Positions 4,324 to 54,710 of a DNA stretch of 64,000 nucleotides are shown here, one piece after another. The notes under the pieces are model-generated. The model was given only the letters and a program-made list of their open reading frames with translations, searched no databases and was not told where the DNA came from. The stretch comes from an uncultured Gammaproteobacteria bacterium. GTDB lineage: Bacteria > Patescibacteriota > Patescibacteriia > Magasanikbacterales > GWA2-37-8. The translations under genes and the position numbers were made by a program. The DNA lies in contig CAZBWU010000003.1 in NCBI GenBank assembly GCA_964496095.1, positions 65,901 to 129,900 of the forward strand. Direction: 5' to 3'. The stretch's first letter is position 1. Each line of letters starts with the position of its first letter.

Positions 4324-4429
4324 GAGAAATCCGGATTTACGGATAACTCAGATATACAGATGATAACGTCTGGACAAACGGTTCAAATCCGTAAATCTGG
4401 ATTATCTGCATATCCGGATAAATCTTAAT

Positions 4430-5649: not shown

Positions 5650-5729
5650 AACACTTCAGTCCACAGACAAACCCTTGAGCCTGCTAAATGTCGCTTTGCG
5701 ACAATCCCCAAGGGGATTATTTAATAGGC

Positions 5730-5855
5730 TTGACAAAAATCTAAAAATTAGTAGTATATAACTACCTCCAAGGCCCAGAGAATGCGTGGTATAAGGAGGA
5801 AACTTACCCTCCTTAGTTTCCTCTCCTCTTACCACGCACTATCTGGGTCTTTTTG
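5730..5855 (+). ncRNA. candidate small structured RNA with own promoter-like element (may also act as a convergent terminator)
   Basis: TTGACA at 5730 and a TAGTAT/TATATA -10 about 17-19 nt later. Then an approximately 85 nt extended hairpin (cccagagaatgcgtggta...taaggagg/cctcctta...taccacgcactatctggg) followed by a T-run. It sits between convergent genes and has no ORF. Confidence 0.3.
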
Positions 5856-5856
5856 T

Positions 5857-6129
5857 TTACAAATTTTTATAAATATCATGCTTACCAATAGAGATAAACA
5901 AAATATCGCCATTTTTTTGGCGCTCAAAAATAATACGATAATTACCAGTAATAGAAATTGACCATAACTCACTTAACTTTCCATGCAAGGCATGAAGGCG
6001 AAGGGATGGATGTAAAGGATTTTCTTTAAAAATTTTTTCTTTTCTCGCCGCTAAAACAAAGAGATCTTTTGGTAATTTTTTTAACTCCACCACAAATTTA
6101 GAAGAATACAAAATACTTGTGATAATCAT
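5857..6129 (-). CDS. type II toxin, RelE/ParE family
   Basis: 90 aa, ...HPSLRLHALHGKLSELWSISITGNYRIIF.... Its start overlaps the upstream small gene by 4 nt. Confidence 0.6.
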   Translation of the reverse strand: MIITSILYSSKFVVELKKLPKDLFVLAARKEKIFKENPLHPSLRLHALHGKLSELWSISITGNYRIIFERQKNGDILFISIGKHDIYKNL

Positions 6130-7102: not shown

Positions 7103-7220
7103 ATTCAAATGAGTGAGAGACAAAATTAAATATGGTTAATTTTGTCCGAGCGAGTGAGAATATATACGCTAAAGCAAATATATTTTGAATTATTTTAATT
7201 ATAATTTTTATGTTCTTGTA

Positions 7221-7547
7221 TTAATTTAATGAGTCCATCTCTGATGTAAGCTCTAATAATTTTTTATCTGAAATTTTTTTTCCCAATTCGAATGCATAGT
7301 CTTCTATACTAGAATCTAGTTTAATACCTGACATATCTATACCAGTTTTTTTATACACTTCCTGATTTAAAGGCCCTAAAATTGACCCGCCTAATTTATG
7401 GTCTACGGGATATTCTCTGGCCCGAATACTATCATAGGAACTAACCATGAATTCCTTTACTAATCTACCCAACAAGGCTAACTTGTCTAATTCTTCCTGA
7501 AATTTTTTCTCAAACGTAATTGATAGCTCTGACTTTTTTTCATTCAT
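7221..7547 (-). CDS. hypothetical protein (108 aa)
   Basis: Intact ORF. No motif recognised. Confidence 0.35.
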   Translation of the reverse strand: MNEKKSELSITFEKKFQEELDKLALLGRLVKEFMVSSYDSIRAREYPVDHKLGGSILGPLNQEVYKKTGIDMSGIKLDSSIEDYAFELGKKISDKKLLELTSEMDSLN

Positions 7548-8042
7548 ATAAACTTATGAGTTAACTTATACCAGCAAGTATACCAAAAAGCCCATAATTT
7601 ACAACATAACCTAGACATCACAAAAACTCCTATCATAAACATCTTTCAACCTTGCTTTGTCCATAACATGTAGTTCTAAAATCGCTCGGGTAAGCGCAAC
7701 ATTCAACAAATCTCGCTGCACCTTTTTAATTTCTGGGATTATCCAATATACAAACAACAAAAAAATTGGCTAACATAAGCCAACTAATTTTAGCGAGGAG
7801 TATGGGACGAAGTGGGAACCTGGGTGGCTAGGGTTAGCCAAATTTAATGATAAAGGATTGACAAAAGCTTAATTATATGATATTATTATTTGTTCTATTA
7901 GTTATTAACTAATAGACTTTGTTCCTTATACATCATGGTAGAAGATACTTTTTAAAGCAGGTACATCTTGCTTTACAGAACATCTTCTACCACACAACAA
8001 CAGGTGAGCGTCAATGACGCCACACCAAGGGAGAGAGATTCT

Positions 8043-8555
8043 ATGAAGAAGGAAAGTCTCTGGCTACTGCCGCTCGCGATCGCCATCGTCTTCTGGATCA
8101 CGGCGATGATCGTCGCTATCCACAACGATTATGTGGGACGGGCCATCCTCTACGGCACGATCTTCGTCCTCAACTTGATCATGCTCGTCGAGTACATGAT
8201 CAAGGTGGAGGTTGCGAAGCTGACCAAGAAGTACGACATCGGCTCTTCGTTCATCATGGTTCCCGTGACGAAGGCCGACACGGCCAGCTGCCCCGAGCAC
8301 GCCGCACAGATCAGCTACGATCGATACACGATTACGTTCCAGGGCTGTCTGGAGCACGGTGCCGATCTAGCGCTCTTCGTGAATGGCAATGCCAAGGAAG
8401 TGGCCGAGCACGCGCGCACCCTCACGGACGCAGGCTCCTTCCTGGATCAGGTCGCGAAGCGACAGCAGATCCCGACGGAGATCGTCGCGAGCCTGCGCGC
8501 CAAGCTGCCGGAGCTGTTCCCCCAGCAACCAGACCCCGACGGCGGCGTACACTGA
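8043..8555 (+). CDS. hypothetical membrane protein encoded by a GC-rich (foreign-composition) cassette
   Basis: Start MKKESLWLL follows aagggagagagattct (SD-like). Two TM helices, then a soluble domain. Codons are G/C-ending throughout, unlike all flanking genes. Opposite-strand ORFs here are treated as GC artefacts. Confidence 0.5.
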   Translation: MKKESLWLLPLAIAIVFWITAMIVAIHNDYVGRAILYGTIFVLNLIMLVEYMIKVEVAKLTKKYDIGSSFIMVPVTKADTASCPEHAAQISYDRYTITFQGCLEHGADLALFVNGNAKEVAEHARTLTDAGSFLDQVAKRQQIPTEIVASLRAKLPELFPQQPDPDGGVH

Positions 8556-14135: not shown

Positions 14136-14212
14136 TGGCGGGTCGGACGGGACTCGAACCCGCAACTTCTGCCGTGACAGGGCAGTGCTCTAACCAGTTG
14201 AACTACCGACCC
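14136..14212 (-). tRNA. tRNA-Asp (GTC), CCA encoded
   Basis: Reverse complement GGGTCGGTAGTTCAACTGGTTAGAGCACTGCCCTGTCACGGCAGAAGTTGCGGGTTCGAGTCCCGTCCGACCCGCCA. Cloverleaf fits with anticodon loop CUGUCAC, and it closely resembles E. coli tRNA-Asp. Confidence 0.9.
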
Positions 14213-20611: not shown

Positions 20612-21472
20612 TCACAATAGTCCCATATACCAATCTACAATTCTATTTCCCCAAACAATACAAACAAGTGTCGCCGCAGCCAGATAAGTTCCAAACGGTG
20701 TAGCGCTTTTTAAAGTTTTCTTCTTAAAAACTAATAATAGCAAACTTATAACTGCTCCGGAGATATAGGCGATAAAAAGCGCGGCCAAACTTATCGGCCA
20801 ACCCAACCACAAACCCATCATCACTCCCAAGCGCACATCCCCTCCTCCAATCCAACGTCCTTTGGAAACTGCAAATTGCAACAAGAAAAAACCACTAATT
20901 ACAACTGCGCCAAGCAACATTGACGTGATACTATAATCCAAATATAAATTAAAAAAAATGCCAATCAAAGATCCTAACCAAACAACTTCAGATAGAACTT
21001 CTTGATACAGGGCATCATAAACAAAAACTACAATTAAAATTATCAAAAAAATTATATTTCGCAAAAAATACAAATAATTTTCAGTCGGATGATTCAAAGA
21101 ATGTCTAGCTAACAGAACAAACAAGATGGAGGTAACAATTTCTACCAAAGTATAATGAAGTGGAATAGGATTTTTACAAGTCAGACATTTACCTTTTAAG
21201 GCGATAAAACTCAACACCGGAATATTTTCATACCAACGCAATTGACGATGACAAACCGGGCACATGCTCCGCCCACTGGTAATACGATAATTTTCACGAG
21301 TTCGCCAAATCCAAGCATTGAGAAAACTACCCACCGATAGACCTAGGAAGAAAATGATAAGGTAAGCAAACTTACCGAAAAATTGATAGTAATACATAAT
21401 GATATATAATAACACAATTGCAAAAAAACAAAAATCCCGCTCTTTTGCAAGGGCGGGAATCTTGTTTTTCAA
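20612..21472 (-). CDS. pilD: prepilin peptidase (A24 family)
   Basis: N-terminal CPVCHRQL...CLTCKNPI Zn-binding pair, multiple TM helices and a catalytic-region GGGDVRLG motif. Confidence 0.8.
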   Translation of the reverse strand: MKNKIPALAKERDFCFFAIVLLYIIMYYYQFFGKFAYLIIFFLGLSVGSFLNAWIWRTRENYRITSGRSMCPVCHRQLRWYENIPVLSFIALKGKCLTCKNPIPLHYTLVEIVTSILFVLLARHSLNHPTENYLYFLRNIIFLIILIVVFVYDALYQEVLSEVVWLGSLIGIFFNLYLDYSITSMLLGAVVISGFFLLQFAVSKGRWIGGGDVRLGVMMGLWLGWPISLAALFIAYISGAVISLLLLVFKKKTLKSATPFGTYLAAATLVCIVWGNRIVDWYMGLL

Positions 21473-21483
21473 ATTTGAAAAAA

Positions 21484-21933
21484 CTAGTTAGAAGTGTCTG
21501 CGATTCCAGATGGACTCAAGGTGATTCCACCAGTTAAGTTATTCATGGCTGTTTCCAAGGTAGCAGTGATTGTATATGTATTAACACCCTTTGTGTATAC
21601 ATAACTTTGAGCTGTTAATGGATCTGCTGGAACTTGTCCCATATATGGGCTAGCGCATAAAGCAACAGTTGTAAAACCATTACCATCCAAACAAGCGTAG
21701 TCAGAAATTCCTAAAGTGATAGGATTTGCAGCTACCGGATAATCCGTTTTGTCAGTATAGTAAAGTTCTAAAGCGGTTTGCATTTGCTTTAAGTCGGAAA
21801 GACGTTTAGCATCACGAGCTTTTTGTCTCGCATTGCCAAGTGCCACTACTGCCAAGGTTGACAGTAAACCGATAATAGCAATTACAACCAACAACTCAAT
21901 CAAAGTAAAACCTTTATTATTCTTTTTCATCAT
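21484..21933 (-). CDS. type IV pilin
   Basis: MMKKNNKGFTLIELLVVIAIIGLLSTLAVVAL has the class III signal with G|FTLIE cleavage motif. Disulfide-bonded C-terminal region. Confidence 0.8.
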   Translation of the reverse strand: MMKKNNKGFTLIELLVVIAIIGLLSTLAVVALGNARQKARDAKRLSDLKQMQTALELYYTDKTDYPVAANPITLGISDYACLDGNGFTTVALCASPYMGQVPADPLTAQSYVYTKGVNTYTITATLETAMNNLTGGITLSPSGIADTSN

Positions 21934-22022
21934 ATTGTCACCCCCTTCCTATTCTTTGTAGTCATAAGCCTAGTCTTTAAAAATCGATTGCTATATTTTC
22001 CCCTACGTATATTATACCACAT

Positions 22023-22406
22023 TTACAGATGCAAAATCTTTTTTACTTTATCCACAACCTCTGATGGTTTGAAATGAGTCTTGATTAGATAGTCCGCTGC
22101 GCCTTTTTCTAATCCGCGTTGCACATCGTCTTGCTGACCTAAATTGGTCAGTAATATTATAGGAATATTTTTTACCGCCGAATCTGCTTTGACTTTTTCA
22201 AGCACGGCAAAACCATCTAATTTTGGCAATAAGATGTCTAACAAGACCAAGTCTGGCATTTTTTTCTTGATATCTACCAAAGCTTTTTCACCATTGCCAG
22301 CAGTGCTTACCTTAAAGCCTTCCATTTCAAATTTTTTCTGATAAATATCAGCCAAAAAATTATCGTCTTCTACAATCAAGATATGAATTTGATTATTTTG
22401 CGCCAT
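22023..22406 (-). CDS. single-domain response regulator (CheY-like receiver)
   Basis: ...HILIVEDDNFLADIY...LVLLDILLPKLDGF...IPIILLTNLGQ...ADYLIKT, receiver domain only, inside the pilus gene block. Confidence 0.75.
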   Translation of the reverse strand: MAQNNQIHILIVEDDNFLADIYQKKFEMEGFKVSTAGNGEKALVDIKKKMPDLVLLDILLPKLDGFAVLEKVKADSAVKNIPIILLTNLGQQDDVQRGLEKGAADYLIKTHFKPSEVVDKVKKILHL

Positions 22407-22429
22407 AAAATTAAATCTAATTTATTTTT

Positions 22430-23578
22430 TTATAACATATCTCTCATCGCCAACCCGACTGCCACTGACATTCTTGGTCCAATTTGGCGAAGTACAGGCT
22501 TGAGACCATCCTGATAAACAACTCTAGCCCAAGCATCGCCAACATAACATTTAATTCTAAATTTACTTTCAATATATTTTGTCAAAAACGGCATCAGCGC
22601 CATTCCGCCGGTCAAAATAATTTTTTCTGGACGCTTGCCTTCGTTGCCAGACTGACGTAAATAAACTTCCAAACTTATTTCTATTTCTTTAAGTATAGGA
22701 TCTATTACTGGCATAAAAATGTCAAGCCACTTTTGCTCACTCAAAATATTATTTCCATTTGTTGGGAGAAAATCAAACAAATCATGCTTTACCTGTTCTA
22801 GCAATTCGATATCCAGTCCCAAAATATTTTGCATTATCTTGTCTATCTTGTCTCCGCCCGCATCTATACTATGATGAGTTATTGGCACTCCTTGATCAAT
22901 GATAAAAAAACTAGTCCTCTCTGCTCCCACATCTATTATCATAGACACAGACTGGTCTCGGCCAATCAAACAACGAGTCAAGGCGGTTGATTCTGGCTCT
23001 AAGGCTTCCAGAGTCAAACCGGCTCTACCAAAAACCTTAGAATAAAAATCGATCAGTTTGTGAGAAACAGCGTTGACCAGCACCCGCTGATTTTTTTCAG
23101 CTGGATTGGTATTTTTTAACACTTGAAAATCCAAAGCCACCTCTTCTAGCGGAATAGGTAATAATTTTTTGACTTCGGCTTTGACAGCGTGATCAAGTTC
23201 TTCTTTTTTGAGAGGAGGTAAAGTGACAACTGCGTGAAATACAGAAGATACAGGCAAACTGACCATGGCGGTCTTAGAAACTACTCGAGCTGTTTTACAT
23301 AGTACCTTTATTGTATCAGCGTATTTGATTATCTGCGCCTCGTTATCCATTTGATCTGAAGCAGCATTGATAGTGGCGGGCTTGTTTTCTTTATTGAGAA
23401 GCCTTGCTATATTTTTATCTTCGTTGGATTGAAATTTGTGAATATCTTGTTTGTCGGAAGTAAAACTATAGGTAAACAAAACTGGTCTTTTCTTTTCTAG
23501 ACGTAATTCTACTAATTTTATTCCACCAGCACCAACATCAATTCCTAAATATGATTTTGGTTTAAAAAAACCGAACAT
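22430..23578 (-). CDS. pilM: type IV pilus assembly protein PilM (actin-like ATPase)
   Basis: MFGFFKPKSYLGIDVGAGGIKLVELR... is the PilM N-terminus. The first 9 codons of the longer ORF overlap a MITE and are excluded. Confidence 0.75.
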   Translation of the reverse strand: MFGFFKPKSYLGIDVGAGGIKLVELRLEKKRPVLFTYSFTSDKQDIHKFQSNEDKNIARLLNKENKPATINAASDQMDNEAQIIKYADTIKVLCKTARVVSKTAMVSLPVSSVFHAVVTLPPLKKEELDHAVKAEVKKLLPIPLEEVALDFQVLKNTNPAEKNQRVLVNAVSHKLIDFYSKVFGRAGLTLEALEPESTALTRCLIGRDQSVSMIIDVGAERTSFFIIDQGVPITHHSIDAGGDKIDKIMQNILGLDIELLEQVKHDLFDFLPTNGNNILSEQKWLDIFMPVIDPILKEIEISLEVYLRQSGNEGKRPEKIILTGGMALMPFLTKYIESKFRIKCYVGDAWARVVYQDGLKPVLRQIGPRMSVAVGLAMRDML

Positions 23579-23599
23579 AAGACAAAGTTTAACTTTGGC

Positions 23600-23670
23600 T
23601 GTCATCCTGAATGCAACGAAGGATCCCTTCCACGGTTTAAGGATTCTTCGGCGTTGCCTCAGAACGACAA
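23600..23670. repeat. MITE-like palindromic element, family A
   Basis: tgtcatcctgaatgcaacgaaggatcccttcc...ggattcttcggcgttgcctcagaacgacaa. Confidence 0.7.
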
Positions 23671-29049: not shown

Positions 29050-31593
29050 ATGAATATTACGGATTTTTTTTACAGTACTATTTCCCTATTCTCCACCGAT
29101 TTTTTTATCATGATTTTTCCGTTTCTTCTAGGATTAGTTTTTTTGATTTCCTCTTTATATATTCTCAAAGCTATCCTCACTATTCGCGGACGCAAAGGCA
29201 AAGCCTTTCACAAAACAGTCCTACTTATCAAAGTACCAAAAGAAAAAAAAGGCGACAAACCCGAATCAGCCAGCGCCGAAGACAACATCAACCATGTACG
29301 TGAAGAAGTGGCCGTGGCTGAAACAATTTTTTCCGCTGTCGCCGGTCTCAAACAAGAAAAAGGTATCAAAGCATGGCTAATGGGTCGAAATGATCATATT
29401 GCTTTTGAAATTGTAGTCAAAGACAACAAGATTTCTTTTTATGTAGTGATGCCAGACAAAGTCAAAGGCTTTATGGAACAACAAATCCACGCTCAGTATC
29501 CTCACGCAGAAATCACAGAAGAGCCGGATTACAACGCTTTCAAACCGCAAAGTCATATTGTCGGCGCTTATCTATGGCTCAAACATAAATCCGCTTTCCC
29601 GCTCAAAACATACAAAAAACTGGATAGCGATCCACTTATCGCTCTTCTTAATCCCCTAAGTAAAGTTGGCGAAGATGAAGGGGCTATAATCCAATACATA
29701 GTACGGCCTGCCTCTCGCAAATGGCGCAGTCAAGGCGTGCATATGGTACGTGATATTAAGAGTGGCGAAAAATTTGAAGATGTCGCCAAAAGAAATTATG
29801 TCTTGAAATTTTTCAAAGATTTTCTCAAATATTTAGCTCCTAGCAAAAAAAGCGAGGGTGGTATGGATCAAAGATATCAGATGACACAAATGGAAGAAGA
29901 GATGATAAAAAACATGGAAGAAAAAATTAGTCGTGGCGGTCTTGAAGCAACCATTCGCATAGTAAGTTCTGCCAACAACAAAGAAAAAGCCGTGATGAAT
30001 CTAGAAAATATTATTAATGCCTTCAGTCAATACAATCTATATAGATACGGTAATACTCTAGCGGCAGCTGTGCCTCGCAAACCAAATACTTTGATTCGTG
30101 ACTACATATATAGAGGCATGAAAGAAAGCCACTACATGGTCTTTAACACCGAAGAGATGGCAAGTTTTTGGCATATGCCAATCCCAAGTACCGAAACACC
30201 AAATATAAATTGGCTTGGAGCGCGCAAGTCTCCCCCACCAACCAACGTCGCCAAAGAAGGCATTACTCTTGGCAGAGCGGTATATAGAGGCGAAGAAACA
30301 ATTATTAAAATGAAACGTGAGGACCGTCGTCGTCATCTCTATACTATCGGTAAATCAGGTAGTGGTAAATCTGTCTTTATCCAAAACATGGCTGTGCAAG
30401 ATATTATCGCCGGCGAAGGTGTCTGTGTTATCGATCCGCACGGAGATTTTGTGGATTATGTTTTGCAACATGTGCCAAAAGAACGCGCCGAAGATGTTAT
30501 TTATTTTAATCCTTCCGATACAGACAGACCAATTGGTTTAAATATTATCGAAGTCTCAACCGAAGAACAAAAAGATTTTGCTACCCAAGAAATGATTTCT
30601 ATTTTCTATAAGTTGGTGACTGACCCATCTATGATTGGTCCGATGTTTGAACACAGTATGCGTAACGTCATGTTGACGCTCATGGCTGACATGGTCAACC
30701 CCGGAACAATTGCCGAAATCCCTCGCATGTTTACCGATGACGAGTTTGTGAAAAAATGGAAAAGCAAACTTAATGACCCGATGGTTCTTGCTTTCTGGGA
30801 TAAAGAAATGGCCAAGACTTCTGACTTCCACAAATCTGAAATGCTTGGTTATTTAATTTCCAAAGTGGGTCGCTTTATCGAAAATTCCATGATCAGAAAT
30901 ATTATCGGACAAACCCATTCTGGTTTTAATTTCCGCGAAGTCATGGATAACAAAAAAATATTATTAGTTAATCTTGCCAAAGGTTTGGTGGGAGAAATGA
31001 ACTCAAACTTACTTGGTTTAATTATTGTATCCAAATTACAAATGGCCGCTCTGGAGCGCGCCTCCCTACCAGAAGATCAACGTCATGATTTTTATTTGTA
31101 TATCGATGAGTTCCAAAACTTTATCACCGACTCTATCGCCACCATTCTTTCTGAAGCTCGTAAATATCGCTTAGAACTTATTATTGCCCACCAGTATATG
31201 AAGCAGTTGGAAGATAATAAAGGTAAAACTACCGTACGCGATGCCGTGCTTGGTAATGCGGGTACACTTGTATCATTCCGTATCGGTGTAGAAGATGCTG
31301 AAGTCCTGGCCAAAGAATACGCTCCTGTGTTTAGCGCTTATGATCTGGTAAACGTTGAACAATTTACCGCTTATGTTAAACTGTTGATTGACAATACAGC
31401 TGCCAAACCGTTTAATATGCTTACCTACCCTCCTCGCTCTGGCAATAAACAGCTAGCAGCAGCTATAAAAGAGCTTTCTAGATTAAAATACGGCCGACCA
31501 AGAGAGATTGTGGAAGCAGAAATTGAAGAAAGAGCACAGTTAGGCGCAGTTACCAAAGAAAGTAAGGCTTCCATTAGTGAAATAGGGTTATAA
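29050..31593 (+). CDS. membrane-anchored P-loop ATPase of the FtsK/HerA/TraD(VirD4)-like superfamily with a large N-terminal domain
   Basis: N-terminal TM. Walker A ...HLYTIGKSGSGKSVFIQN.... ...VIDPHGDFVDYV...IYFNPSD... resembles the TrwB/TraD DPxG...NPLD region. Walker B ...FYLYIDEFQNF..., then ...RKYRLELIIAHQ.... Residues 100-400 are paralogous to 40524..41978. Confidence 0.5.
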   Translation: MNITDFFYSTISLFSTDFFIMIFPFLLGLVFLISSLYILKAILTIRGRKGKAFHKTVLLIKVPKEKKGDKPESASAEDNINHVREEVAVAETIFSAVAGLKQEKGIKAWLMGRNDHIAFEIVVKDNKISFYVVMPDKVKGFMEQQIHAQYPHAEITEEPDYNAFKPQSHIVGAYLWLKHKSAFPLKTYKKLDSDPLIALLNPLSKVGEDEGAIIQYIVRPASRKWRSQGVHMVRDIKSGEKFEDVAKRNYVLKFFKDFLKYLAPSKKSEGGMDQRYQMTQMEEEMIKNMEEKISRGGLEATIRIVSSANNKEKAVMNLENIINAFSQYNLYRYGNTLAAAVPRKPNTLIRDYIYRGMKESHYMVFNTEEMASFWHMPIPSTETPNINWLGARKSPPPTNVAKEGITLGRAVYRGEETIIKMKREDRRRHLYTIGKSGSGKSVFIQNMAVQDIIAGEGVCVIDPHGDFVDYVLQHVPKERAEDVIYFNPSDTDRPIGLNIIEVSTEEQKDFATQEMISIFYKLVTDPSMIGPMFEHSMRNVMLTLMADMVNPGTIAEIPRMFTDDEFVKKWKSKLNDPMVLAFWDKEMAKTSDFHKSEMLGYLISKVGRFIENSMIRNIIGQTHSGFNFREVMDNKKILLVNLAKGLVGEMNSNLLGLIIVSKLQMAALERASLPEDQRHDFYLYIDEFQNFITDSIATILSEARKYRLELIIAHQYMKQLEDNKGKTTVRDAVLGNAGTLVSFRIGVEDAEVLAKEYAPVFSAYDLVNVEQFTAYVKLLIDNTAAKPFNMLTYPPRSGNKQLAAAIKELSRLKYGRPREIVEAEIEERAQLGAVTKESKASISEIGL

Positions 31594-34274: not shown

Positions 34275-34345
34275 TCCGAGGTGGTCTAATGGTAGGACAA
34301 CGGACTCTGAATCCGTTTATCTTGGTTCGAATCCAAGCCTCGGAA
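34275..34345 (+). tRNA. tRNA-Gln (CTG)
   Basis: TCCGAGGTGGTCTAATGGTAGGACAACGGACTCTGAATCCGTTTATCTTGGTTCGAATCCAAGCCTCGGAA. 7 bp acceptor, D and T arms fold, anticodon loop CUCUGAA. CCA not encoded. Confidence 0.8.
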
Positions 34346-37086: not shown

Positions 37087-37332
37087 ATGTCGCAGGTGCA
37101 TGGCAAAGTCGAACTCCCGTGCAATTACTTCAAACACCCAAACAAAGGAGCTAATAACGGCTGTACCGGCATCTTCGTTGAAGTGGGCGGAGAAAACGGC
37201 TCTACCGTTCGCACCCGTCTACGATGCAACCACGCCGGTTGTCAGCGCGTCATCCACATCGACGTTGCAGAGCTTCTGCAGATCTACCAGCACGAGCGCC
37301 AAAAACGCTACAAGCCTAGCAAAAAAGACTAG
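37087..37332 (+). CDS. hypothetical small Cys4 protein (81 aa) in a GC-rich cassette
   Basis: Strong SD (agggggggcaacgatcATG). G/C-rich codons. Four Cys (C12, C26, C47, C52) may form a zinc-ribbon. Confidence 0.4.
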   Translation: MSQVHGKVELPCNYFKHPNKGANNGCTGIFVEVGGENGSTVRTRLRCNHAGCQRVIHIDVAELLQIYQHERQKRYKPSKKD

Positions 37333-37469
37333 GCTAGCTGCAAATATCTGGGGAGTCTCTTAGAGTTTGGCGGTCACTCTTTAAAAACCGTCAGCCTTTC
37401 TATTTGTTGAATATCCACACCTACCATTTGACATCTTAAACTAACGTGATAGTCTAACTATACAATTCA

Positions 37470-37645
37470 ATATGTATCTGTGGAAATGAGGTTAGATTCC
37501 TCTACTGTGCCGCAACGGTAAACCAAGTTTAACTTAAACTTGGAAGTCCGGTCTTCAGATATACAACTTCACGAGCGAAGTTGCGTCCCGAGCAGGAAAA
37601 TATTCTTATATTTTTTAATCTTTCCTGCCCGGTAAAGATTTTTTT
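37470..37645 (+). promoter_or_regulatory. candidate cobalamin (AdoCbl-type) riboswitch with terminator expression platform
   Basis: GGAAAUGAGGUUAGAUUCCUCUACUGUGCCGCAACGGUAAA resembles the conserved GGGAA...GGUGAAAAUCC...GCUGUCCCGCAACUGUAA core of Rfam RF00174 as recalled. The downstream AGCAGGAAA...UUUCCUGCCCGG stem plus U-run ends 6 nt before the DUF4430 gene. Confidence 0.5.
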
Positions 37646-37650
37646 ATTTT

Positions 37651-38211
37651 ATGACCAAATCACTTCACCGACTACTAATAATACTAATTTTTATTTTTGT
37701 TTCTGCTTCGGCCTATTTATTTTCTACTCAAAATAAACAACCTACCGTTTCTCAAATTTCAAATCCAACTTCTGCACCTAAAATAAATCTGCAAGAAGAA
37801 GATATAAAACCAGCTGTCCTAGAAAACAAAAAAAATAACAAACCCATTGATAAAAAAATAGAGACTCCCCCACCAACCACAACTCCCAACACAAAAACCG
37901 ACGAACAGAAACCAGAAACTACACCGATAATAATCGCAATTGAAGATAAAGAATATAAAATAGAAGTAAAACCAAACTCATCTGCCTACGAAGCCATGAA
38001 TAGCCTAAAAGGCTTAGGACAGATATCATTTTCTAGCAAAAACTTTGCTGGACTGGGATATTTCATAGAAGAAATAAACGGCATAAAAAATAATCCCTCC
38101 ACTGGATTTTATTGGACACTATATATAAATAACGAAGAGGCAAAAATTGGAGTCTCAGGCTATATTCTTAAACCTAACGATTTAATTACTTGGAAATATG
38201 TCCGCAAATAA
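37651..38211 (+). CDS. membrane-anchored DUF4430 domain protein (transcobalamin beta-domain-like)
   Basis: N-terminal TM, Pro/Thr linker, C-terminal ...GFYWTLYINNEEAKIGVSGYILKPNDLITWKY typical of DUF4430. Confidence 0.6.
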   Translation: MTKSLHRLLIILIFIFVSASAYLFSTQNKQPTVSQISNPTSAPKINLQEEDIKPAVLENKKNNKPIDKKIETPPPTTTPNTKTDEQKPETTPIIIAIEDKEYKIEVKPNSSAYEAMNSLKGLGQISFSSKNFAGLGYFIEEINGIKNNPSTGFYWTLYINNEEAKIGVSGYILKPNDLITWKYVRK

Positions 38212-39868
38212 ACAAGCCATCATTAAGACTCTAATTATCCTCAGTTGTTTTGTTTGGCTTTTACCTGCCAAGGCGGACGAGACTACTTCTACAATAGACG
38301 TAGTTAGTTCTACTCCAGAAATTACAACTTCTACAACAGATACTGTTACTACCACACCCCCAACTGATACAAACCTAACCACATCTACATCTGACACAGA
38401 TTTAACACCTACCTCCACAGTAGAAACAAGCACCACAACCACTTCTATAATAGACATCGTCACTACCACAATCTTTAATACATCCACTGAAGCAAATACT
38501 ACCACCGAACAAGTTCAAACTAGTGGTGGGGGCAATGCCCAAACCCAAATATTTATAAATAATAGTGAAATAAATAATGCCGTTCAAAAAATCTTAAACT
38601 TCTTAAAATCAAACCAGCTTGAAAATGGCAGTATTATTGATTTACAAACATCAGACTGGTCGGCCATGTCATTTGGCGCAAACAATACTTACGCTAATGA
38701 AATAAAAAATCCAACGTTATCGCTCTACGATTATTTAACTAACACGTCAATAACTGCCGATACTGGCACGCTAAATAATTGCACAGAATACCCCCGACAT
38801 ATCCTGGGATTACTGGCCAGCGGAACTGCCAAAACCAACGCGCAAATTATTGATTTAAAAAATAAAATTAAAACAGAATGTCTGACCAATAATCAGGTGG
38901 GTCAGGCGGGAATCAACGATGATATTTTTATTTCACTGGCTCTACTTGCAACTGACGAAAACCCAAATTCTGAAATAATCCAAACAGCTATTTCCACCAT
39001 CAAAGCAGATCAACAAACAGACGGATCTTTTACCTGGAACGGTTGGTCTGGGCAAGATGTGACTGGCGCAGCGATAAACGCCTTAAAATACGCTTCCGGT
39101 TTTGGTATAACAATAGACAATTCAATCTTTGATAAAGCCAAAAACTATTTACATACCACCCAGCTTAGCGATGGAGGTTGGGGTTTTGGCGCTTCTGATC
39201 CGCTTACTACCGCTTGGGCAATGTACGGCCTAAATTCTATCGGAGAAGGCCAGGCGCAATGGATGAGCGCGCAAGGCAAAAACCCTTGGACTGTTCTCAC
39301 TAGTCAACTGACAAACAATGGGTACTATCCTAGTCCTTGGAGTGCCGATGGCATAGACTGGTTTGCCACCAAACACGCTGTTCCAGCTATCTTAGGCAGG
39401 TCTTGGCCTATAATCCTCGCTCCGCTTGCTAGCGCTCAAAATACAGCCAATTCTGTGTCTTCTGGAGGCTCAGGCACACCCTCGACTTCCACCCAAACTA
39501 CCAGTATAATAATCACTACCAGTACACCGACAACTACACCAATTATCATTACTCTAGAAACTTCTACCCTAGACCAAACTACCACAACCGGTGAGGTTCT
39601 AGGAGAAAAAATTATTAGAGAAGAAATTATACAAACAATAATTAGCAAACCAAAAAAATTAATTTCCAGAAATACTTTGCCGACTAATAAAACCGAACTT
39701 GCTCAAACAACTCAAACTGAACTTGAAACAATCAAACCTACAGTTTTACCAGAAATCAAACAGCCAACCGATTCGTCTCGAAATACAATAAAAATAATTT
39801 TGGCAGTTTCCGGTGGTGGCGCTTTATTAATTGGAATTTACTTAGGCTTAAAATCTTTAAAGAAATAA
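38198..39868 (+). CDS. cell-surface alpha/alpha-toroid (prenyltransferase/squalene-oxidase-repeat-like) protein with Thr-rich linkers and C-terminal TM anchor
   Basis: Signal peptide, T/S-rich low-complexity stretches, repeats ...QQTDGSFTWNGWSG... and ...QLSDGGWGFGASDP..., C-terminal TM (ILAVSGGGALLIGIYLGL). Overlaps the upstream gene by 14 nt. Confidence 0.55.
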   Translation: MSANKQAIIKTLIILSCFVWLLPAKADETTSTIDVVSSTPEITTSTTDTVTTTPPTDTNLTTSTSDTDLTPTSTVETSTTTTSIIDIVTTTIFNTSTEANTTTEQVQTSGGGNAQTQIFINNSEINNAVQKILNFLKSNQLENGSIIDLQTSDWSAMSFGANNTYANEIKNPTLSLYDYLTNTSITADTGTLNNCTEYPRHILGLLASGTAKTNAQIIDLKNKIKTECLTNNQVGQAGINDDIFISLALLATDENPNSEIIQTAISTIKADQQTDGSFTWNGWSGQDVTGAAINALKYASGFGITIDNSIFDKAKNYLHTTQLSDGGWGFGASDPLTTAWAMYGLNSIGEGQAQWMSAQGKNPWTVLTSQLTNNGYYPSPWSADGIDWFATKHAVPAILGRSWPIILAPLASAQNTANSVSSGGSGTPSTSTQTTSIIITTSTPTTTPIIITLETSTLDQTTTTGEVLGEKIIREEIIQTIISKPKKLISRNTLPTNKTELAQTTQTELETIKPTVLPEIKQPTDSSRNTIKIILAVSGGGALLIGIYLGLKSLKK

Positions 39869-39950
39869 GTATAGGGGCTAAAGCCACATATATTCTCACT
39901 CACTCGGAAAAGATAAAAAGCATTTTACCTTTTCCTCATTCATTTCAAAT

Positions 39951-40478
39951 ATGCAAAAATATATCCCCGCTTTTTTTCTTATAGCTCTTGGCCTGTTTTC
40001 CAGAGTTCTCCCCCACCCTGCCAACTTTGCGCCGATTGCTGGCATTGCTTTGTTCGCCGGAATATACTTACCAAAGAAACTTGCCGTCATTGTTCCGTTA
40101 GTAGTAATGGCTTTAAGTGATTTTATTATTGGAATTTACCAATGGCAAATCATGCTAACTGTTTATCTCGCTTTTATTATAACTGGTTTGATTGGTTTGG
40201 CAGTCAAAAATAAAAAAAACTTTGGTTCTATTGTGGGTGGAACTCTGCTAGCGAGTATTATCTTCTTTATTACTACCAACTGGTCAGTCTGGGCTTTTGG
40301 CACCATGTACCCGCACTCATTAAACGGCCTCTTACAAAGCTATGCTATGGCTTTGCCATTCTTTAGAAACAGTCTGCTTGGAGATTTATTCTATGTTGGG
40401 GTTTTAGTTGGTGGAATGGAAATATCTTTAAACTTCAACAAACAAAACATCCTGGAAACAAAAAAGATTGGAGTATAA
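39951..40478 (+). CDS. ECF-transporter S-component-like small membrane protein
   Basis: 175 aa and about 6 TM. N-terminal ...RVLPHPANFAPIAGIALFAGIY... resembles solitary S-component families. Substrate unproven. Confidence 0.45.
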   Translation: MQKYIPAFFLIALGLFSRVLPHPANFAPIAGIALFAGIYLPKKLAVIVPLVVMALSDFIIGIYQWQIMLTVYLAFIITGLIGLAVKNKKNFGSIVGGTLLASIIFFITTNWSVWAFGTMYPHSLNGLLQSYAMALPFFRNSLLGDLFYVGVLVGGMEISLNFNKQNILETKKIGV

Positions 40479-40523
40479 TCCAATCTTTTTTAGTTTATTT
40501 TTTATAATTTAAGGCTTCCAAAA

Positions 40524-41978
40524 TTATCCCCACATTAATTCTGGCGGTTCATCTTTCTTTTCTTCTACCGGCTCAGGGGCTGGCGCTACTTTCTTTTTTA
40601 GAGGACTCTCTGCAAATACTTCCACAGGAAGATTAATTGGAGGTTCGGCGCGTTTACTGCCTGTCTTTTGTACAAGAGGAGCTTTAACAAGCGGTAATGG
40701 AAAGTGCCAAATTGTAGCCAACTCTTCTACATTAAGAACATAAGGATTTTTTCCCATTTTAAGTTTTCTTTTTTTATAAGCCTTTACAAAATCTATTTTA
40801 AGATGAGCGGTCTTGCTTTTTTTAAAAGCATAATGAGCGGAGGTTGTCGCTTTTGGTACAATCCCATTGCGTTGTGGATAACTAAACTGGCTAAATGCAC
40901 CTACCAAACCATCCAAACAACGGCTAGGATTAAAAACTTCTTTGTTAGCTGCATACATAGCTCTAATTTTAGTCTTAAATCCAACTTTACTTATTTTTTC
41001 TTCTATAGCCTTCACAGTATCCTTAAGGCCGGGAGTTAAATCAGAAACTTTACCAGGTTTCTCTTCAGTAGCTGCTGCCCCGTGTTCTGCTTCATGAGGA
41101 GGAATTATTTGATGAATTATTGCATCCAAACCAACATTAATCCATTTAAGTAAAAAGTGCTGTTCGTGATGACCGTGGCTAGCCTTACCTTCAACTATAC
41201 CTTTTACTAACTTTTGACCCTTCTCTTGCAAACTACCCTTAACAATATCTATACCTTTTTTCTTCCACTCTCCGGAAACTGGCTCAATTATAATTTGTAA
41301 CCATAAGTTTTCTCCGGCACTAATACGAGTAAAATTTTCTAAAACCGCTGCCATCGGATCGGCAAAGGTTATATCCTTAGAAATATTATGCTCAAATTCA
41401 TCATAATTTCTGATTGGATAAGGATCCTCAGCGACCAATCCAAATTCAACACCAAACATATCATGAGTTTCGTTTGGATATTTGTCAGGAATCATACTCA
41501 CATAATCTTCAACTTCAGTTATCTCTGCCATTGGATACTGCGCATAAACTGCCGCCTCTACCAAATCTCGGAACTTAACTTCTGTGTAAACCAAAAATTG
41601 AATATACCCTTCCAAACTAATAATCTCAAAACTAAACCATCTTTCCTTAACTCCACCCCAATATTTTTCACCAAAATTCGGATCGGCAAAGGCGCCACTA
41701 AGTTGGGAAAATATCTGCTCAACCGCCTTCGGGCTTTGCACCGTATCAACAGGAACATCTATTGCCAAAACTACCCATTGCCAATGATGTTTATAAAGAT
41801 CTTCTTTTAATTCAAGCCATAGATGAGCTCCGACCCAAAAGATAACAAGCGCTAAAACTGTCCAACCGCCAATCGCAAAAATCACCCTTATTAGTTGAGG
41901 TGTTGGTAAATTCAAAATCGTTTCCCAAACAGAAAAATCTATAGAGACACTAAATGGTAAATCAGCTAAAGGTGGCAT
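40524..41978 (-). CDS. membrane-anchored paralog of the N-terminal domain of the 29050..31593 ATPase (no ATPase domain)
   Basis: ...AVYAQYPMAEITEVEDY... vs ...QIHAQYPHAEITEEPDY.... ...VLNVEELATIWHFPLP...EPPINLP vs ...MVFNTEEMASFWHMPIP...SPPPTNV. Lacks Walker motifs. Confidence 0.45.
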   Translation of the reverse strand: MPPLADLPFSVSIDFSVWETILNLPTPQLIRVIFAIGGWTVLALVIFWVGAHLWLELKEDLYKHHWQWVVLAIDVPVDTVQSPKAVEQIFSQLSGAFADPNFGEKYWGGVKERWFSFEIISLEGYIQFLVYTEVKFRDLVEAAVYAQYPMAEITEVEDYVSMIPDKYPNETHDMFGVEFGLVAEDPYPIRNYDEFEHNISKDITFADPMAAVLENFTRISAGENLWLQIIIEPVSGEWKKKGIDIVKGSLQEKGQKLVKGIVEGKASHGHHEQHFLLKWINVGLDAIIHQIIPPHEAEHGAAATEEKPGKVSDLTPGLKDTVKAIEEKISKVGFKTKIRAMYAANKEVFNPSRCLDGLVGAFSQFSYPQRNGIVPKATTSAHYAFKKSKTAHLKIDFVKAYKKRKLKMGKNPYVLNVEELATIWHFPLPLVKAPLVQKTGSKRAEPPINLPVEVFAESPLKKKVAPAPEPVEEKKDEPPELMWG

Positions 41979-52208: not shown

Positions 52209-54710
52209 TTATTTTTTAATATTAATCTTTTTAGTAACACTGTGTCCACCAAACTGATTACGCAAAGCCGAGACTACCTTGCCGGTATAACTTGGATTTT
52301 TGGCAGAATGATAACGGAATAATAATGAATCAGCAATCACTTTTGCCGCCACCTTAAACTCTTTAGCAGTTTTGACAGTCCAAGCCCCTTCTCCCAAATG
52401 AGAAACCGTGCTAGAAATATCTTTCAAATCTTTCCCGTATTCTTCTAGCCCTTTTTTGAGCCAACCGATAAGACGGGACTCAACCACACTACCGTGATTA
52501 TAGATACTAGCAATTTTTATTAGATCAAGCTTAAACGGCGCTTTTTTCATAATTGCAAAACCTTCACCAATTGCTTGCATCATACCATACTCAATGCCAT
52601 TGTGGATCATTTTTACAAAATGCCCGGCTCCCAAACCATCAAAATGTTCGGTACCGCCAGCGGTTGCCCCATCGACAAACAATGGTAATAGTTCATTGTA
52701 TAATTTTCTATCCCCACCAACCATAAAACAAGCGCCATTGCGCGCCCCGCCCGGACCGCCCGAGAAGCCCACATCAGCAAACCTGATCCCCAATTTTGCC
52801 AATTTTTTTCCACGACGAATTGTATCTTTATAATATGAATTTCCTGCATCAAGAATAATATCGCCCTTCTGCAAAAAATCTACCAATCCGCCTTTATCAA
52901 AAATACTACGGTATTTTCTAGGCACGCTCGGAGATGAAAATAATTTTTCATCTCTCTCACTTTGCCCGAAAATTGTTTGATCAATCACTTCTCCGGACGG
53001 CAACATCAGCCAAACAATTTTTGGCTTACTTGATAGTTGAGAACAAAATTCCGGTAAAGAAAAGGATCCTACCATGCCGTGTTTAATCATCTCCTGAGTT
53101 TTTTCCGGAGACCTGTTATAACCAACCACTCGCCAACCTTTTTCGATAAGTTGCCAAGCAAAATTGTTTCCCATTTTTCCTAATCCAATAATGCCAATTT
53201 CTTTATTTAAAGGTTTTAAATTATCTACTGGCAAAACAAAATCGTTTTTAGCGCCTATCTTGTAAGTCAATAATTCTGTTTTATTTTTTTGCCAAGCTTG
53301 CATAATCGCTTCCACGAACCGCCACTCGGCGGTAATTTCTGCGGTGGAAATAAACAGGGTCTGATCACCTTTTACAATATCTAAAATCAACTGTTCATAG
53401 TCTGGAATAAAATCCTTCTTATCAATGTCGTTATAATTAAAATTAAAATCTACTTGGCTCAGCGTATGATTATGCCCTGGTTTTTTAGCCAAAAAACCTA
53501 CCTTAATATTTTCATCAGGCTTGATATTGTAGCGCAAAGTATTTTGATAGTGCCCGCCAGCAGGACAGAGCAAACACGGCGTCGGATGTTTAAATGTTAA
53601 TTTAATCTCACCACGACTCTCAGCCAGACCCTTACCGCCTTCTATATAGAGAGGCACGCCCGCAAAAGGTCCTGAATGCATTGTGGCCTTAACTTTAAAA
53701 TATGTCTCTGTATTTGAGTTTGGGTGTATCTTGTTCTGTGTGCGATAACCCTCGTACTGAGCGCGGAGAGTATTACTTTTTACTCCGTCAATGTCTAGCA
53801 CTTCCAAACGAGCCAAGCTCTCGGCGCGCTTTTTACGAATTTCGTCAGCCGTAAAACTATCGGGGTTGTCCATCGTAAACAAAGCTATAAGTTGTAATAA
53901 ATGATTCTGACCAACATCACGCAAAGCGCCTACCTTATCATAAAAATCCCCTCTTTCTTCTATATCTTCTGCTTCATTTAAAATAAACTCTATTTTTTCT
54001 ACATATTTATTATTCCAAGCCGGCGTCAAAAATAAATTACTAAAACGAAAAGCGATAATGTTTCGGACTGTTTCTTTTCCTAAATAATGATCTATGCGAT
54101 AAATCTGGTCTTCTCTAAATAGTTTACCCAATAACATATCCAGCTCTTGAGCGGATTTGAGATCAGAACCAAAAGGTTTTTCAATCACAATTCTATTCAC
54201 ACCATCTTTAGGATCACAAGGTTCGGCCAACCCTGAATTTTTCAATCCTAACAAAATAGTTTTGTAATTATTCGGAGGCACAGCCAAATAGAAAATTTTA
54301 TCTGAACAAAAACTCCAACCAGTATTAGTTTTTCCCAAAGCGTTGGCTAATTTTTTATAAGCGTTTTTATCTTCAAAATTTCCACTGATATAAAAAAAAC
54401 AATTTAGAAAATTTTCCAACTCTACTTCGCGAGTACCACGAGAAGCCCCGCTCTCAACCAAAATATTACGAATATAATCTCTTAAAGACTGATCAGTCAA
54501 ATCTCGTCTAGAAAAACCATAGATCTGCAATTTTTCCGGCAATAACTTTTTGGTATATAGGCTAAAAAATGATGGTAAAATCTTGGTCCTTACCAAATCG
54601 CCAGTAACACCAAATAGTACAAAAACACTAGGCACGGCAAAACGGGGTATATGATTAGACATAAAATAATTTAAGCTTTTATGAATTAAAACCTTAATTT
54701 TAAAAGCCAA
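52209..54710 (-). CDS. apparent fusion: glucose-6-phosphate 1-dehydrogenase (N) plus decarboxylating 6-phosphogluconate dehydrogenase (C)
   Basis: N-terminal ...FVLFGVTGDLVRTKILPSFF... (NADP-binding G-x-x-G-D-L-A), ...RIDHYLGKE.... C-terminal third ...IGIIGLGKMGNNFAWQL...DAGNS...GAGHFVKMIHNGIEYGMMQ... is the 6PGD fold. One uninterrupted frame. The start may be 54662 (MSNHIPRF). Confidence 0.7.
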   Translation of the reverse strand: MAFKIKVLIHKSLNYFMSNHIPRFAVPSVFVLFGVTGDLVRTKILPSFFSLYTKKLLPEKLQIYGFSRRDLTDQSLRDYIRNILVESGASRGTREVELENFLNCFFYISGNFEDKNAYKKLANALGKTNTGWSFCSDKIFYLAVPPNNYKTILLGLKNSGLAEPCDPKDGVNRIVIEKPFGSDLKSAQELDMLLGKLFREDQIYRIDHYLGKETVRNIIAFRFSNLFLTPAWNNKYVEKIEFILNEAEDIEERGDFYDKVGALRDVGQNHLLQLIALFTMDNPDSFTADEIRKKRAESLARLEVLDIDGVKSNTLRAQYEGYRTQNKIHPNSNTETYFKVKATMHSGPFAGVPLYIEGGKGLAESRGEIKLTFKHPTPCLLCPAGGHYQNTLRYNIKPDENIKVGFLAKKPGHNHTLSQVDFNFNYNDIDKKDFIPDYEQLILDIVKGDQTLFISTAEITAEWRFVEAIMQAWQKNKTELLTYKIGAKNDFVLPVDNLKPLNKEIGIIGLGKMGNNFAWQLIEKGWRVVGYNRSPEKTQEMIKHGMVGSFSLPEFCSQLSSKPKIVWLMLPSGEVIDQTIFGQSERDEKLFSSPSVPRKYRSIFDKGGLVDFLQKGDIILDAGNSYYKDTIRRGKKLAKLGIRFADVGFSGGPGGARNGACFMVGGDRKLYNELLPLFVDGATAGGTEHFDGLGAGHFVKMIHNGIEYGMMQAIGEGFAIMKKAPFKLDLIKIASIYNHGSVVESRLIGWLKKGLEEYGKDLKDISSTVSHLGEGAWTVKTAKEFKVAAKVIADSLLFRYHSAKNPSYTGKVVSALRNQFGGHSVTKKINIKK

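Follow-up and report, generated by a model that had tools for sequence, protein, structure and literature searches.

Bacterial proteins that combine a transcobalamin-like SLBB domain with an alpha/alpha toroid were predicted to bind extracellular vitamin B12 by Burroughs, Balaji, Iyer and Aravind in 2007 (PMC1796856). Separate secreted transcobalamin beta-like (Lsa1839) and alpha-like (Lsa1840) proteins, encoded together with a membrane importer, were described in L. sakei in 2019 (10.1101/864751), so that a split alpha/beta arrangement as such is not new. For the membrane step, the energy-coupling factor (ECF) transporter ECF-CbrT of L. delbrueckii imports vitamin B12 (6FNP; PMC5997447), and solitary BtuM and BioY transport their substrates without an ECF module (PMC6072759). 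Here we analysed a 64-kb stretch of contig CAZBWU010000003.1 (GCA_964496095.1), from a Candidatus Magasanikbacteria (Patescibacteria) genome, hereafter the window, in which a riboswitch leader precedes three genes for a DUF4430 protein, an alpha/alpha toroid protein and a DUF6580 membrane protein. This operon is probably a cobalamin-repressed system for capturing and importing corrinoids. All coordinates are window positions, and the operon lies on the + strand.

The locus shares with the proteins described in 2007 the same two domains, the predicted extracellular location and the predicted capture of B12, and fused toroid homologues exist; here the two domains come from separate, translationally coupled genes, and neither riboswitches nor DUF6580 are mentioned in that work (PMC1796856). 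The split pair plus importer is common to our locus and the L. sakei system, but the latter comes with an ECF module of its own (S, T and fused A/A') and a link to heme, whereas the window has DUF6580 only, no ECF genes found nearby and a cobalamin riboswitch. Compared with the mammalian carriers transcobalamin, intrinsic factor and haptocorrin, the DUF4430 protein is homologous to the beta-domain at the profile level and its partner shares the alpha6/alpha6 barrel fold, and extracellular B12 binding, here a prediction, would be a shared property. The mammalian carriers are single polypeptides with an N-terminal barrel and a C-terminal beta-domain that deliver B12 to a receptor for endocytosis, whereas here there are two polypeptides, both membrane-tethered and with the beta-like gene first, and delivery is proposed to be to a small permease.

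Patescibacteria are ultra-small bacteria with reduced metabolism, and how they acquire cofactors is, to our knowledge, largely unknown. The cassette offers a concrete, testable B12 uptake route for them and a proposed function for the sizeable DUF6580 family. It involves no new principle: riboswitch-repressed B12 uptake, bacterial SLBB and toroid proteins (2007) and the S-component-type B12 importers CbrT and BtuM (2018) were already known, each piece is of a known kind, and it is the combination that is new. What we add is DUF6580 as membrane partner, a near-universal Patescibacteria DUF4430-(toroid)-DUF6580 cassette without an adjacent ECF module, and a lineage of adenosylcobalamin (AdoCbl)-type riboswitches that hovers around the Rfam threshold. 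Our literature search found no publication on DUF6580, on cobalamin riboswitches in Patescibacteria or on a prenyltransferase with a riboswitch.

Operon layout and comparison set

Three same-strand open reading frames (ORFs) follow the leader, and the start of the toroid ORF overlaps the stop of the DUF4430 ORF by 14 nt. For comparison, 80 genome loci were fetched via relatives of the third protein (DUF6580); the names on homologues are Candidatus Magasanikbacteria or Patescibacteria. The Pfam scan covered 20 ORFs of the window, and the view was extended by about 10 kb past both window ends. The features of the leader and the operon are the following.

37465-37600, + strand: cobalamin riboswitch aptamer of the RF01482 AdoCbl type (Rfam match, own covariance model, covariation)
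37473-80/37556-63, + strand: aptamer helix P1
37488-91/37499-502, + strand: aptamer helix P4
37506-08/37512-14, + strand: aptamer helix P5
37516-18/37548-50, + strand: base of aptamer helix P6
37523-30/37536-43, + strand: P6 hairpin
37564-83, + strand: lineage-specific insertion hairpin
37587-37596, + strand: invariant CCCGAGCAGG, a mini P13 hairpin with a CC/GG stem and a CGAGCA loop, the counterpart of L13 in AdoCbl riboswitches
37588-37632, + strand: antiterminator hairpin, CCGAGCAGGAAA... paired with ...UUUCCUGCCCGG, present in the minimum-free-energy fold
37618-37650, + strand: intrinsic terminator, stem-loop (A)UCUUUCC-UGCCC-GG(U)AAAGA(U) at 37618-37639 and U-run at 37639-37650, followed by the start codon
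37651-38211, + strand: membrane-anchored DUF4430 protein, 186 aa (PF14478, beta-domain profile matches, hydropathy)
38198-39868, + strand: surface-tethered alpha6/alpha6 toroid, 556 aa (structure model, Foldseek, profile, hydropathy, composition)
39951-40478, + strand: DUF6580 membrane protein, 175 aa, six helices (PF20221 E 1e-46, structure model, fold matches)

The riboswitch aptamer

A first-pass annotation of this stretch had quoted a cobalamin riboswitch core motif in the leader and had proposed a covariance-model check with RF00174. The motif is present at 37482-37522 and the riboswitch is backed by a covariance-model match and by covariation, but the family is RF01482 and not RF00174. 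At gathering thresholds, an Rfam scan of the whole window returned only a tmRNA and two tRNAs and no cobalamin family. A permissive scan of 37330-37680 (351 nt) matched RF01482 (AdoCbl, clan CL00101) at 37457-37608 over the full length of the model (1-149 of 149) with 49.8 bits and an E-value of 2.1e-8; two weaker overlapping matches came from the same clan, and all others were noise (E >= 0.47). The window leader misses the gathering score of 50 bits by 0.2 bits, apparently because of the lineage-specific hairpin at 37564-83. Because 9 of 12 orthologous leaders pass the threshold (51.2-64.7 bits), the lineage as a whole qualifies for RF01482; it also follows from its position at or just under the threshold that some of its members are missed by standard annotation.

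Plain nhmmer recognised a homologous leader before the first cassette gene in about 40 of the 80 loci, with the invariant blocks GGAAgUGAGGU, AUUCCUCcACUGUGCCGCAACGGUAA, AAGUCCGRUCUUCA and CCCGAGCAGG separated by variable hairpins. Our own covariance model (R1), built from an alignment of 26 leaders, has a single match in the 64-kb window (37465-37600, 116.6 bits) and, at E < 1e-3, finds matches in 50 of the 80 loci; each of them is on the coding strand, and all but one (L064) lie upstream of the cassette. The fold of the window leader beats all 200 shuffles (z = -4.2). Across the 26 leaders, 84% of cells are paired compared with 73% in shuffles (0 of 500 as high), both sides change in 17 of 27 pairs, and the covariation score reaches 0.339, compared with 0.154 for shuffles (none of 500 as high) and no more than 0.196 for slid partners. 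Compensatory changes are abundant in P1, P4 and the P6 hairpin, and the conserved helices P1, P4, P5 and P6 are as a set supported by them; with 55 sequences, 90% of cells are paired and both sides change in 26 of 30 pairs. As judged from the model matches and the covariation, the leader is a genuine member of the AdoCbl riboswitch family.

With RF01482 the leader shares the full-length match, the core elements GGAA, P4, GCCGCAACGG and AGUCCGG, the covariation-backed P1-P6 junction and a CGAGCA loop that resembles the L13 consensus CGAGGcA. It differs in that the P6 extension is usually one short hairpin in these leaders and that P13 is cut down to 2-5 bp, with the 5' strand of this stem also acting as an antiterminator arm, whereas the extra hairpin at 37564-83 and the sub-threshold score belong to the window copy. 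At one of the other loci (L040:4875-5157, with P1 at 4884-91 and 5129-37), a tandem riboswitch was considered and rejected; the two apparent matches belong to a single aptamer whose P6 extension carries about 190 nt of inserted sequence.

The switching motif and the expression platform

The block CCCGAGCAGG is unchanged in 26 of 26 aligned leaders and can be folded in two ways. On its own it forms the mini P13 hairpin, the CGAGCA loop of which is aligned by the RF01482 model to its L13 consensus. Divergent leaders show the motif as UUCUU-CGAGCA-AAGAA, UCUC-CGAGCA-GAGA, CCC-CGAGCA-GGG or CCU-CGAGCA-AGG, and all 3 pairs of the mini-hairpin, which are absent from the search model, show double changes with 88% of cells paired. 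Alternatively, CCCGAGCAGG (37587-96) pairs with ...CCUGCCCGG (to 37632), a strand that is also the 5' arm and loop of the smaller hairpin at 37618-37639, which abuts the U-run. Because this partner strand is shared with the U-run hairpin, we read the long hairpin as an antiterminator, and because CCCGAGCAGG serves both as the mini P13 hairpin and as the 5' arm of the antiterminator, we regard it as the switching sequence. Among 37 orthologous leaders, the motif partner overlaps the U-run hairpin in 31, and a hairpin abuts the U-run in 32.

The terminator hairpin forms in folding calculations once the switching motif is constrained to be unpaired, and it was identified by this constrained folding together with conservation. 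A simple scanner misses it because the stem is weak, with fewer than 3 G-C pairs and a bulge. The earlier statement that the leader ends in a terminator hairpin thus needs a partial correction: a terminator exists at 37618-37639 plus U-run, but the long hairpin that had been taken for it is the antiterminator. The U-run at 37639-37650 reaches the ATG at 37651 and leaves no room for a Shine-Dalgarno sequence, so that read-through transcripts must initiate translation without one.

Known cobalamin riboswitches have a regulatory L5-L13 kissing loop. In this leader, L5 (GUGCCGC) and the CGAGCA loop could form 3-4 pairs at best by eye, and because both loops are invariant, we can only infer that they dock.

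The DUF4430 protein

In the first protein, a hydrophobic anchor near the N-terminus (residues 3-27) is followed by a Pro/Thr/Lys-rich linker and by an SLBB domain that resembles the beta-domain of transcobalamin (115-184). It is this domain that PF14478 matches in Pfam, over residues 115-184 with 52.3 bits (cut-off 23.8) and an E-value of 8e-14. A profile of the DUF4430 proteins of the cassettes (A6), searched against the Protein Data Bank (PDB), matched haptocorrin (4kki, 1.9e-6), intrinsic factor (3kq4 and 2pmv, 4e-6), the isolated beta-domain of transcobalamin (5no0, 2.7e-5), as well as 2bb5, which is transcobalamin, and 2bb6 (2.6e-4 to 2.7e-4). It also matched 3u7z at 2.5e-3, and all of these alignments lie on the C-terminal domain. 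A narrower DUF4430 profile gave no match in the PDB, and only the broadened profile reached transcobalamin; single-sequence PDB searches of the DUF4430 and DUF6580 proteins returned noise only, and NCBIfam gave no useful name for any of the three operon proteins. On these profile matches, the DUF4430 protein is homologous to the B12-binding beta-domain found in transcobalamin, intrinsic factor and haptocorrin, which bears out the membrane-anchored DUF4430 protein proposed in the first-pass annotation and is in line with what Burroughs et al. 2007 concluded for the SLBB superfamily (PMC1796856).

The toroid protein

In the second protein, a signal-like segment (residues 6-26) and a Thr-rich stalk (27-115) precede the toroid (about 116-440), after which come another stalk, rich in Thr and Pro, and a C-terminal transmembrane anchor (529-552). 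The Thr content is 39% in residues 27-115 and 26% in 441-525. The structure model of the toroid is a single barrel of about 320 residues with 12 core helices (pLDDT 90.5), so that the surface-anchored alpha/alpha toroid with Thr-rich stalks envisaged in the first-pass annotation is well supported. In Pfam, the window protein has a sub-threshold match to SQHop_cyclase_C. In a Foldseek search of the PDB, squalene-hopene-type cyclases and drimenyl-diphosphate synthase lead (E 1.6e-6, TMq 0.56-0.62), transcobalamin takes ranks 12 and 17 (E 6e-6 and 2e-5) as well as 20, with TMq of 0.49-0.53 and E-values up to 4e-5 over the three, and haptocorrin takes rank 41; glycoside hydrolase and epimerase barrels are also among the matches. 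Overall, fold similarity to the eukaryotic cobalamin carriers spans E-values of 6e-6 to 2.5e-4 and TMq of 0.49-0.54.

The DVDDTA motif of squalene-hopene cyclase aligns to a family consensus g-v-D-i-T-g (G-x-D-V/I-T-G; SGQDVTGA in the window), in which D374 is replaced by G and D377 by V, and two of the three acidic residues of the DxDD site are thereby gone. An NDD motif is conserved across the toroid family. The toroid thus shares with squalene-hopene and other class II terpene cyclases the repeat sequence similarity and the alpha/alpha barrel fold, but it lacks DxDD, has one barrel instead of two (beta-gamma), and is predicted to be secreted and anchored, not cytoplasmic or membrane-monotopic. 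The lost DxDD, the single barrel and the extracytoplasmic location set the toroid apart from ordinary terpene cyclases. An enzyme of the usual kind that retains its catalytic motifs had been named beforehand as the outcome that would speak against a role in B12 capture, and this outcome was not observed.

Distant toroid homologues are fused to DUF4430 in both orders, with DUF4430 at the N-terminus in P0037-39 and at the C-terminus in P0041 and P0036. Another homologue, P0032 (468 aa, on a 2.7-kb contig), combines a B12-binding_2 (PF02607) segment at its N-terminus with the C-terminal half of the toroid family; it is either a real fusion or a chimera of assembly or gene calling.

The DUF6580 protein

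The model of the third protein has six helices (pLDDT 84.9), and 7 of its top 8 Foldseek matches in the PDB are ECF S-components (4huq_S, RibU, FolT, PanT). The best of them, 4huq_S, has TM-scores of 0.65/0.69 and an rmsd of 3.7, and the match probabilities of the S-components are 0.66-1.0. Pfam assigns the window protein to DUF6580 only and to no S-component family (e.g., PF12822 or PF07155), but the relatives P0207 and P0235 have sub-threshold Pfam S-component matches (E 0.0017 and 0.003, respectively). The fold matches and these weak matches in relatives agree with the S-component-like third protein of the first-pass annotation. At 50% identity the family falls into 5,939 clusters; among its invariant residues is His22 of an LPHPxNFxP motif, and there is no Cys among the invariant columns and none in the window protein. 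P0243 is a natural fusion of DUF6580, a seventh transmembrane helix and DUF4430, and in P0213 a toroid C-terminus is joined to DUF6580, which may be a truncated or read-through call. DUF6580 is predicted to be a corrinoid permease with an ECF S-component-like fold.

Like the membrane component of ECF-CbrT (6FNP; PMC5997447), DUF6580 is a small six-helix protein, but it is a Pfam family separate from ECF_trnsprt (PF12822). With BtuM (PMC6072759) it has in common that it is small and S-component-like, has no ECF module found nearby and is predicted to import B12. However, there is no detectable sequence similarity between the two, BtuM is absent from the top 50 DUF6580 fold matches, and the cobalt-ligating cysteine of BtuM has no counterpart in DUF6580.

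Gene context across related loci

DUF4430 is encoded upstream of DUF6580 in 71 of the 80 loci, a toroid is present in 54 and both in 50, and about one quarter of the 71 DUF4430-DUF6580 cassettes are without a toroid gene. Of the 47 three-gene cassettes for which sufficient upstream sequence was available, at least 44 have the riboswitch, a count made up of 42 plus L007 and L073, which were added by hand as their ORF starts are overcalled. Only about 5-6 of 17 two-gene cassettes have it, and several of the others lie directly downstream of nrdJ. This gene for adenosylcobalamin-dependent ribonucleotide reductase adjoins the cassette in 9 loci, and 4 of 4 tested exceed the TIGR02504 cut-off. DUF6580 is the most conserved cassette member and pairs with DUF4430 alone in compact nrdJ-linked clusters without another membrane protein. 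In L064:3110-8391, the order is nrdJ, DUF4430, DUF6580 and PduO-type cobalamin adenosyltransferase, which matches the nrdJ-cbrS-cbrT-pduO cluster of L. delbrueckii (PMC5997447).

The same locus L064 contains a second cobalamin-riboswitch-like element (7157-7260, 37.6 bits with model R1) before a gene for a 361-aa protein (7306-8391) that carries CxxC...CxxC at its C-terminus, is matched by no Pfam family and lacks homologues at the other loci.

Twelve cassettes hold a fourth gene between toroid and DUF6580, encoding a second small (about 125 aa) DUF4430-like protein.

About 5470-5970 in most: extra DUF4430-like gene in L011, L012, L016, L022, L024, L025, L036, L043, L050, L051, L053 and L054

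More distant loci combine the same parts differently. In L085:577-7668, an RF00174 riboswitch (70.5 bits) precedes genes for a 416-aa protein, DUF4430, CbiQ (EcfT), a fused double ABC ATPase and a toroid, and a PduO-type adenosyltransferase is encoded close by; this operon is an ECF-module-equipped version of the system and is comparable to that of L. sakei. In L084, an RF01689 riboswitch (42.4 bits) precedes a fused toroid-DUF4430 gene. Toroid and DUF4430 genes are thus found behind three cobalamin riboswitch classes (RF01482, RF00174 and RF01689), partly in unrelated lineages. The proteins encoded beside these distant toroid genes (179 aa in L084, 416 aa in L085) were tested as DUF6580-like and rejected, and the 416-aa protein has no Pfam match. 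An archaeal-looking contig with Pelota and NFACT neighbours (L083:4242-7599) encodes a DUF4430-DUF6580 pair, a divergent fusion of a helix-turn-helix (HTH) domain (ArsR/MarR) to DUF4430, and a toroid; the HTH-DUF4430 fusion may be a protein-based B12 sensor in place of the riboswitch.

Proposed mechanism

Without B12, CCCGAGCAGG would pair with ...CCUGCCCGG, so that the antiterminator is the default fold and RNA polymerase reads into the genes. When B12 is bound, the aptamer would dock CCCGAGCAGG as the mini-hairpin, probably via an L5-L13 kissing contact; with the downstream strand thereby released, the small terminator hairpin would fold ahead of the U-run and end transcription immediately upstream of the ATG. 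At the cell surface, the DUF4430 protein and the toroid most likely hold a single corrinoid between them in the manner of the two transcobalamin domains, and this corrinoid would then be handed to DUF6580, which would carry it across the membrane either alone, like BtuM, or with an ECF module encoded elsewhere. We infer ligand binding, the hand-over to DUF6580, the mode of energisation and, by analogy with transcobalamin, the 1:1:1 DUF4430-corrinoid-toroid sandwich. The proteins are linked to B12 because of the beta-domain homology, the three riboswitch classes, the nrdJ/pduO linkage, the fusions and the predicted extracellular location, and the parts are linked functionally to each other because of synteny and natural fusions.

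Alternative explanations

Several results weigh against the corrinoid reading and are taken up here together with the alternatives. The toroid is nearest in sequence to squalene-hopene cyclase repeats (E 2.8e-34, profile against PDB), cyclases fit its fold slightly better than transcobalamin does (a near-tie), and its sequence searches returned neither a transcobalamin alpha-domain in the PDB nor a Pfam Cobalamin_bind match; the claimed likeness to the transcobalamin alpha-domain therefore holds for the fold and not for the sequence, and the two proteins mirror the domains of the eukaryotic carriers in beta homology and alpha6/alpha6 fold but without alpha-domain sequence homology. Together with the top Foldseek ranks of cyclases and drimenyl-diphosphate synthase, the glycoside hydrolase and epimerase barrels, the conserved NDD motif and the quarter of cassettes without a toroid, this would suit an envelope enzyme, terpene-cyclase/prenyltransferase-like or a glycan-acting alpha/alpha barrel, that is merely co-transcribed with a DUF4430/DUF6580 B12 importer. 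We consider this quite improbable because two of the three acidic residues of DVDDTA are lost, the single barrel has no beta-gamma didomain, the signal-like segment, stalks and C-terminal anchor place the toroid outside the cell and away from isoprenoid diphosphates, its homologues are fused to DUF4430 in both orders, and toroid genes lie behind three cobalamin riboswitch classes. The same architecture might instead import heme or another tetrapyrrole, as proposed for Lsa1836-1840 of L. sakei, where deletion of an ECF-like operon with separate transcobalamin beta-like and alpha-like proteins impaired heme uptake (10.1101/864751), and corrinoid binders are often promiscuous (PMC5997447). A heme importer is very unlikely, since the operon lies behind a cobalamin riboswitch and related genes behind those of two further cobalamin classes, since related loci have nrdJ and cobalamin adenosyltransferase and not heme genes as neighbours, and since DUF4430 is homologous to proven B12-binding domains. 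Also against the corrinoid reading, none of nrdJ, metH and the cob genes was found by Pfam among the 20 window ORFs scanned, and the view of about 10 kb beyond the window ends turned up no B12-dependent enzyme, cob gene or ECF module. The picture in the first-pass annotation, a B12-auxotrophic episymbiont that scavenges from a host surface, is conjectural.

At the membrane, DUF6580 might not be the translocator but a dock for the capture proteins or a corrinoid-processing protein, with another transporter doing the import. CbrT alone does not transport and needs the shared ECF module (PMC5997447), and neither CbiQ/EcfT nor an ECF-type ATPase was found among the 20 window ORFs scanned, nor does an ECF gene recur near the cassettes of the 80 loci. 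The E-values of the DUF6580 fold matches are weak (0.3-0.7), and the one PDB sequence matched by its profile, a 182-aa chain of 6FNP, falls short of significance (E 0.22); this chain is likely to be CbrT, since the matched fragment belongs to a Pfam ECF S-component family, ECF_trnsprt (PF12822). BtuM, moreover, also does chemistry, namely decyanation (PMC6072759). Because solitary BtuM and BioY transport without an ECF module, and because DUF6580 is the most conserved member of the cassette and stands with DUF4430 alone in the compact nrdJ-linked clusters, we regard a role as dock or processing protein as unlikely. The last alternative, that the leader is a chance riboswitch look-alike or a decayed copy, takes up the 0.2-bit shortfall against the Rfam gathering threshold, owing to which a standard scan misses it; it is close to refuted by the local E-value of 2.1e-8, the same leader position in about 50 loci, compensatory changes in every variable helix, orthologues above the threshold and a conserved expression platform. 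We therefore favour cobalamin-repressed capture and import of corrinoids.

Implications

A more far-reaching version of the corrinoid import reading is that DUF6580 represents a new ECF-independent family of corrinoid importers, fed by a tethered two-protein trap, which would be the principal B12 route of Patescibacteria (CPR), and of some archaea with a similar cassette, and would supply the B12-dependent ribonucleotide reductase; we put forward this version tentatively, rating its chances somewhat below even. If it is true, the fold that animals inherited in transcobalamin would have had its common form in the bacterial split trap and not in the fused protein. Because of the three riboswitch classes, the nrdJ/pduO linkage and the fusions, the locus adds comparative support to the idea of 2007 that transcobalamin-type B12 binders began as bacterial surface proteins.

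Further features of the window

Two more features flank the leader and the genes.

37428-37455, + strand: promoter-like element, TTGACA at 37428-37433, 16-nt spacer with TG at 37447-37448 and weak -10 TAGTCT at 37450-37455
40460-40491, + strand: terminator-like hairpin and T-run at the operon end, overlapping the DUF6580 stop codon

The TGnTAnnnT block of the upstream element is kept in orthologous leaders, and from its sequence 37428-37455 is a putative promoter; a consensus scan does not list it because the -10 hexamer fits at only 3 of 6 positions. The gene folD lies upstream of the operon, and the opposite strand downstream carries a DUF8128 gene and secF/secD. The DUF8128 protein (484 aa, 40524-41978, - strand) is encoded tail-to-tail with the operon and has a homologue in the same position in 30 of the 80 loci, which may merely reflect synteny.

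Elsewhere in the window, we noted a tmRNA gene at 3927-4324 (+ strand, 134.5 bits), tRNA genes at 34275-34345 (+ strand) and 14139-14212 (- strand), type IV pilus genes including prepilin peptidase and PilM at 20612-23605 (- strand), and a TrwB/TraG-like coupling ATPase of 847 aa at 29050-31593 (+ strand). An 833-aa protein encoded at 52209-54710 (- strand) is a fusion of the G6PD_N and G6PD_C domains of glucose-6-phosphate dehydrogenase with 6-phosphogluconate dehydrogenase domains.

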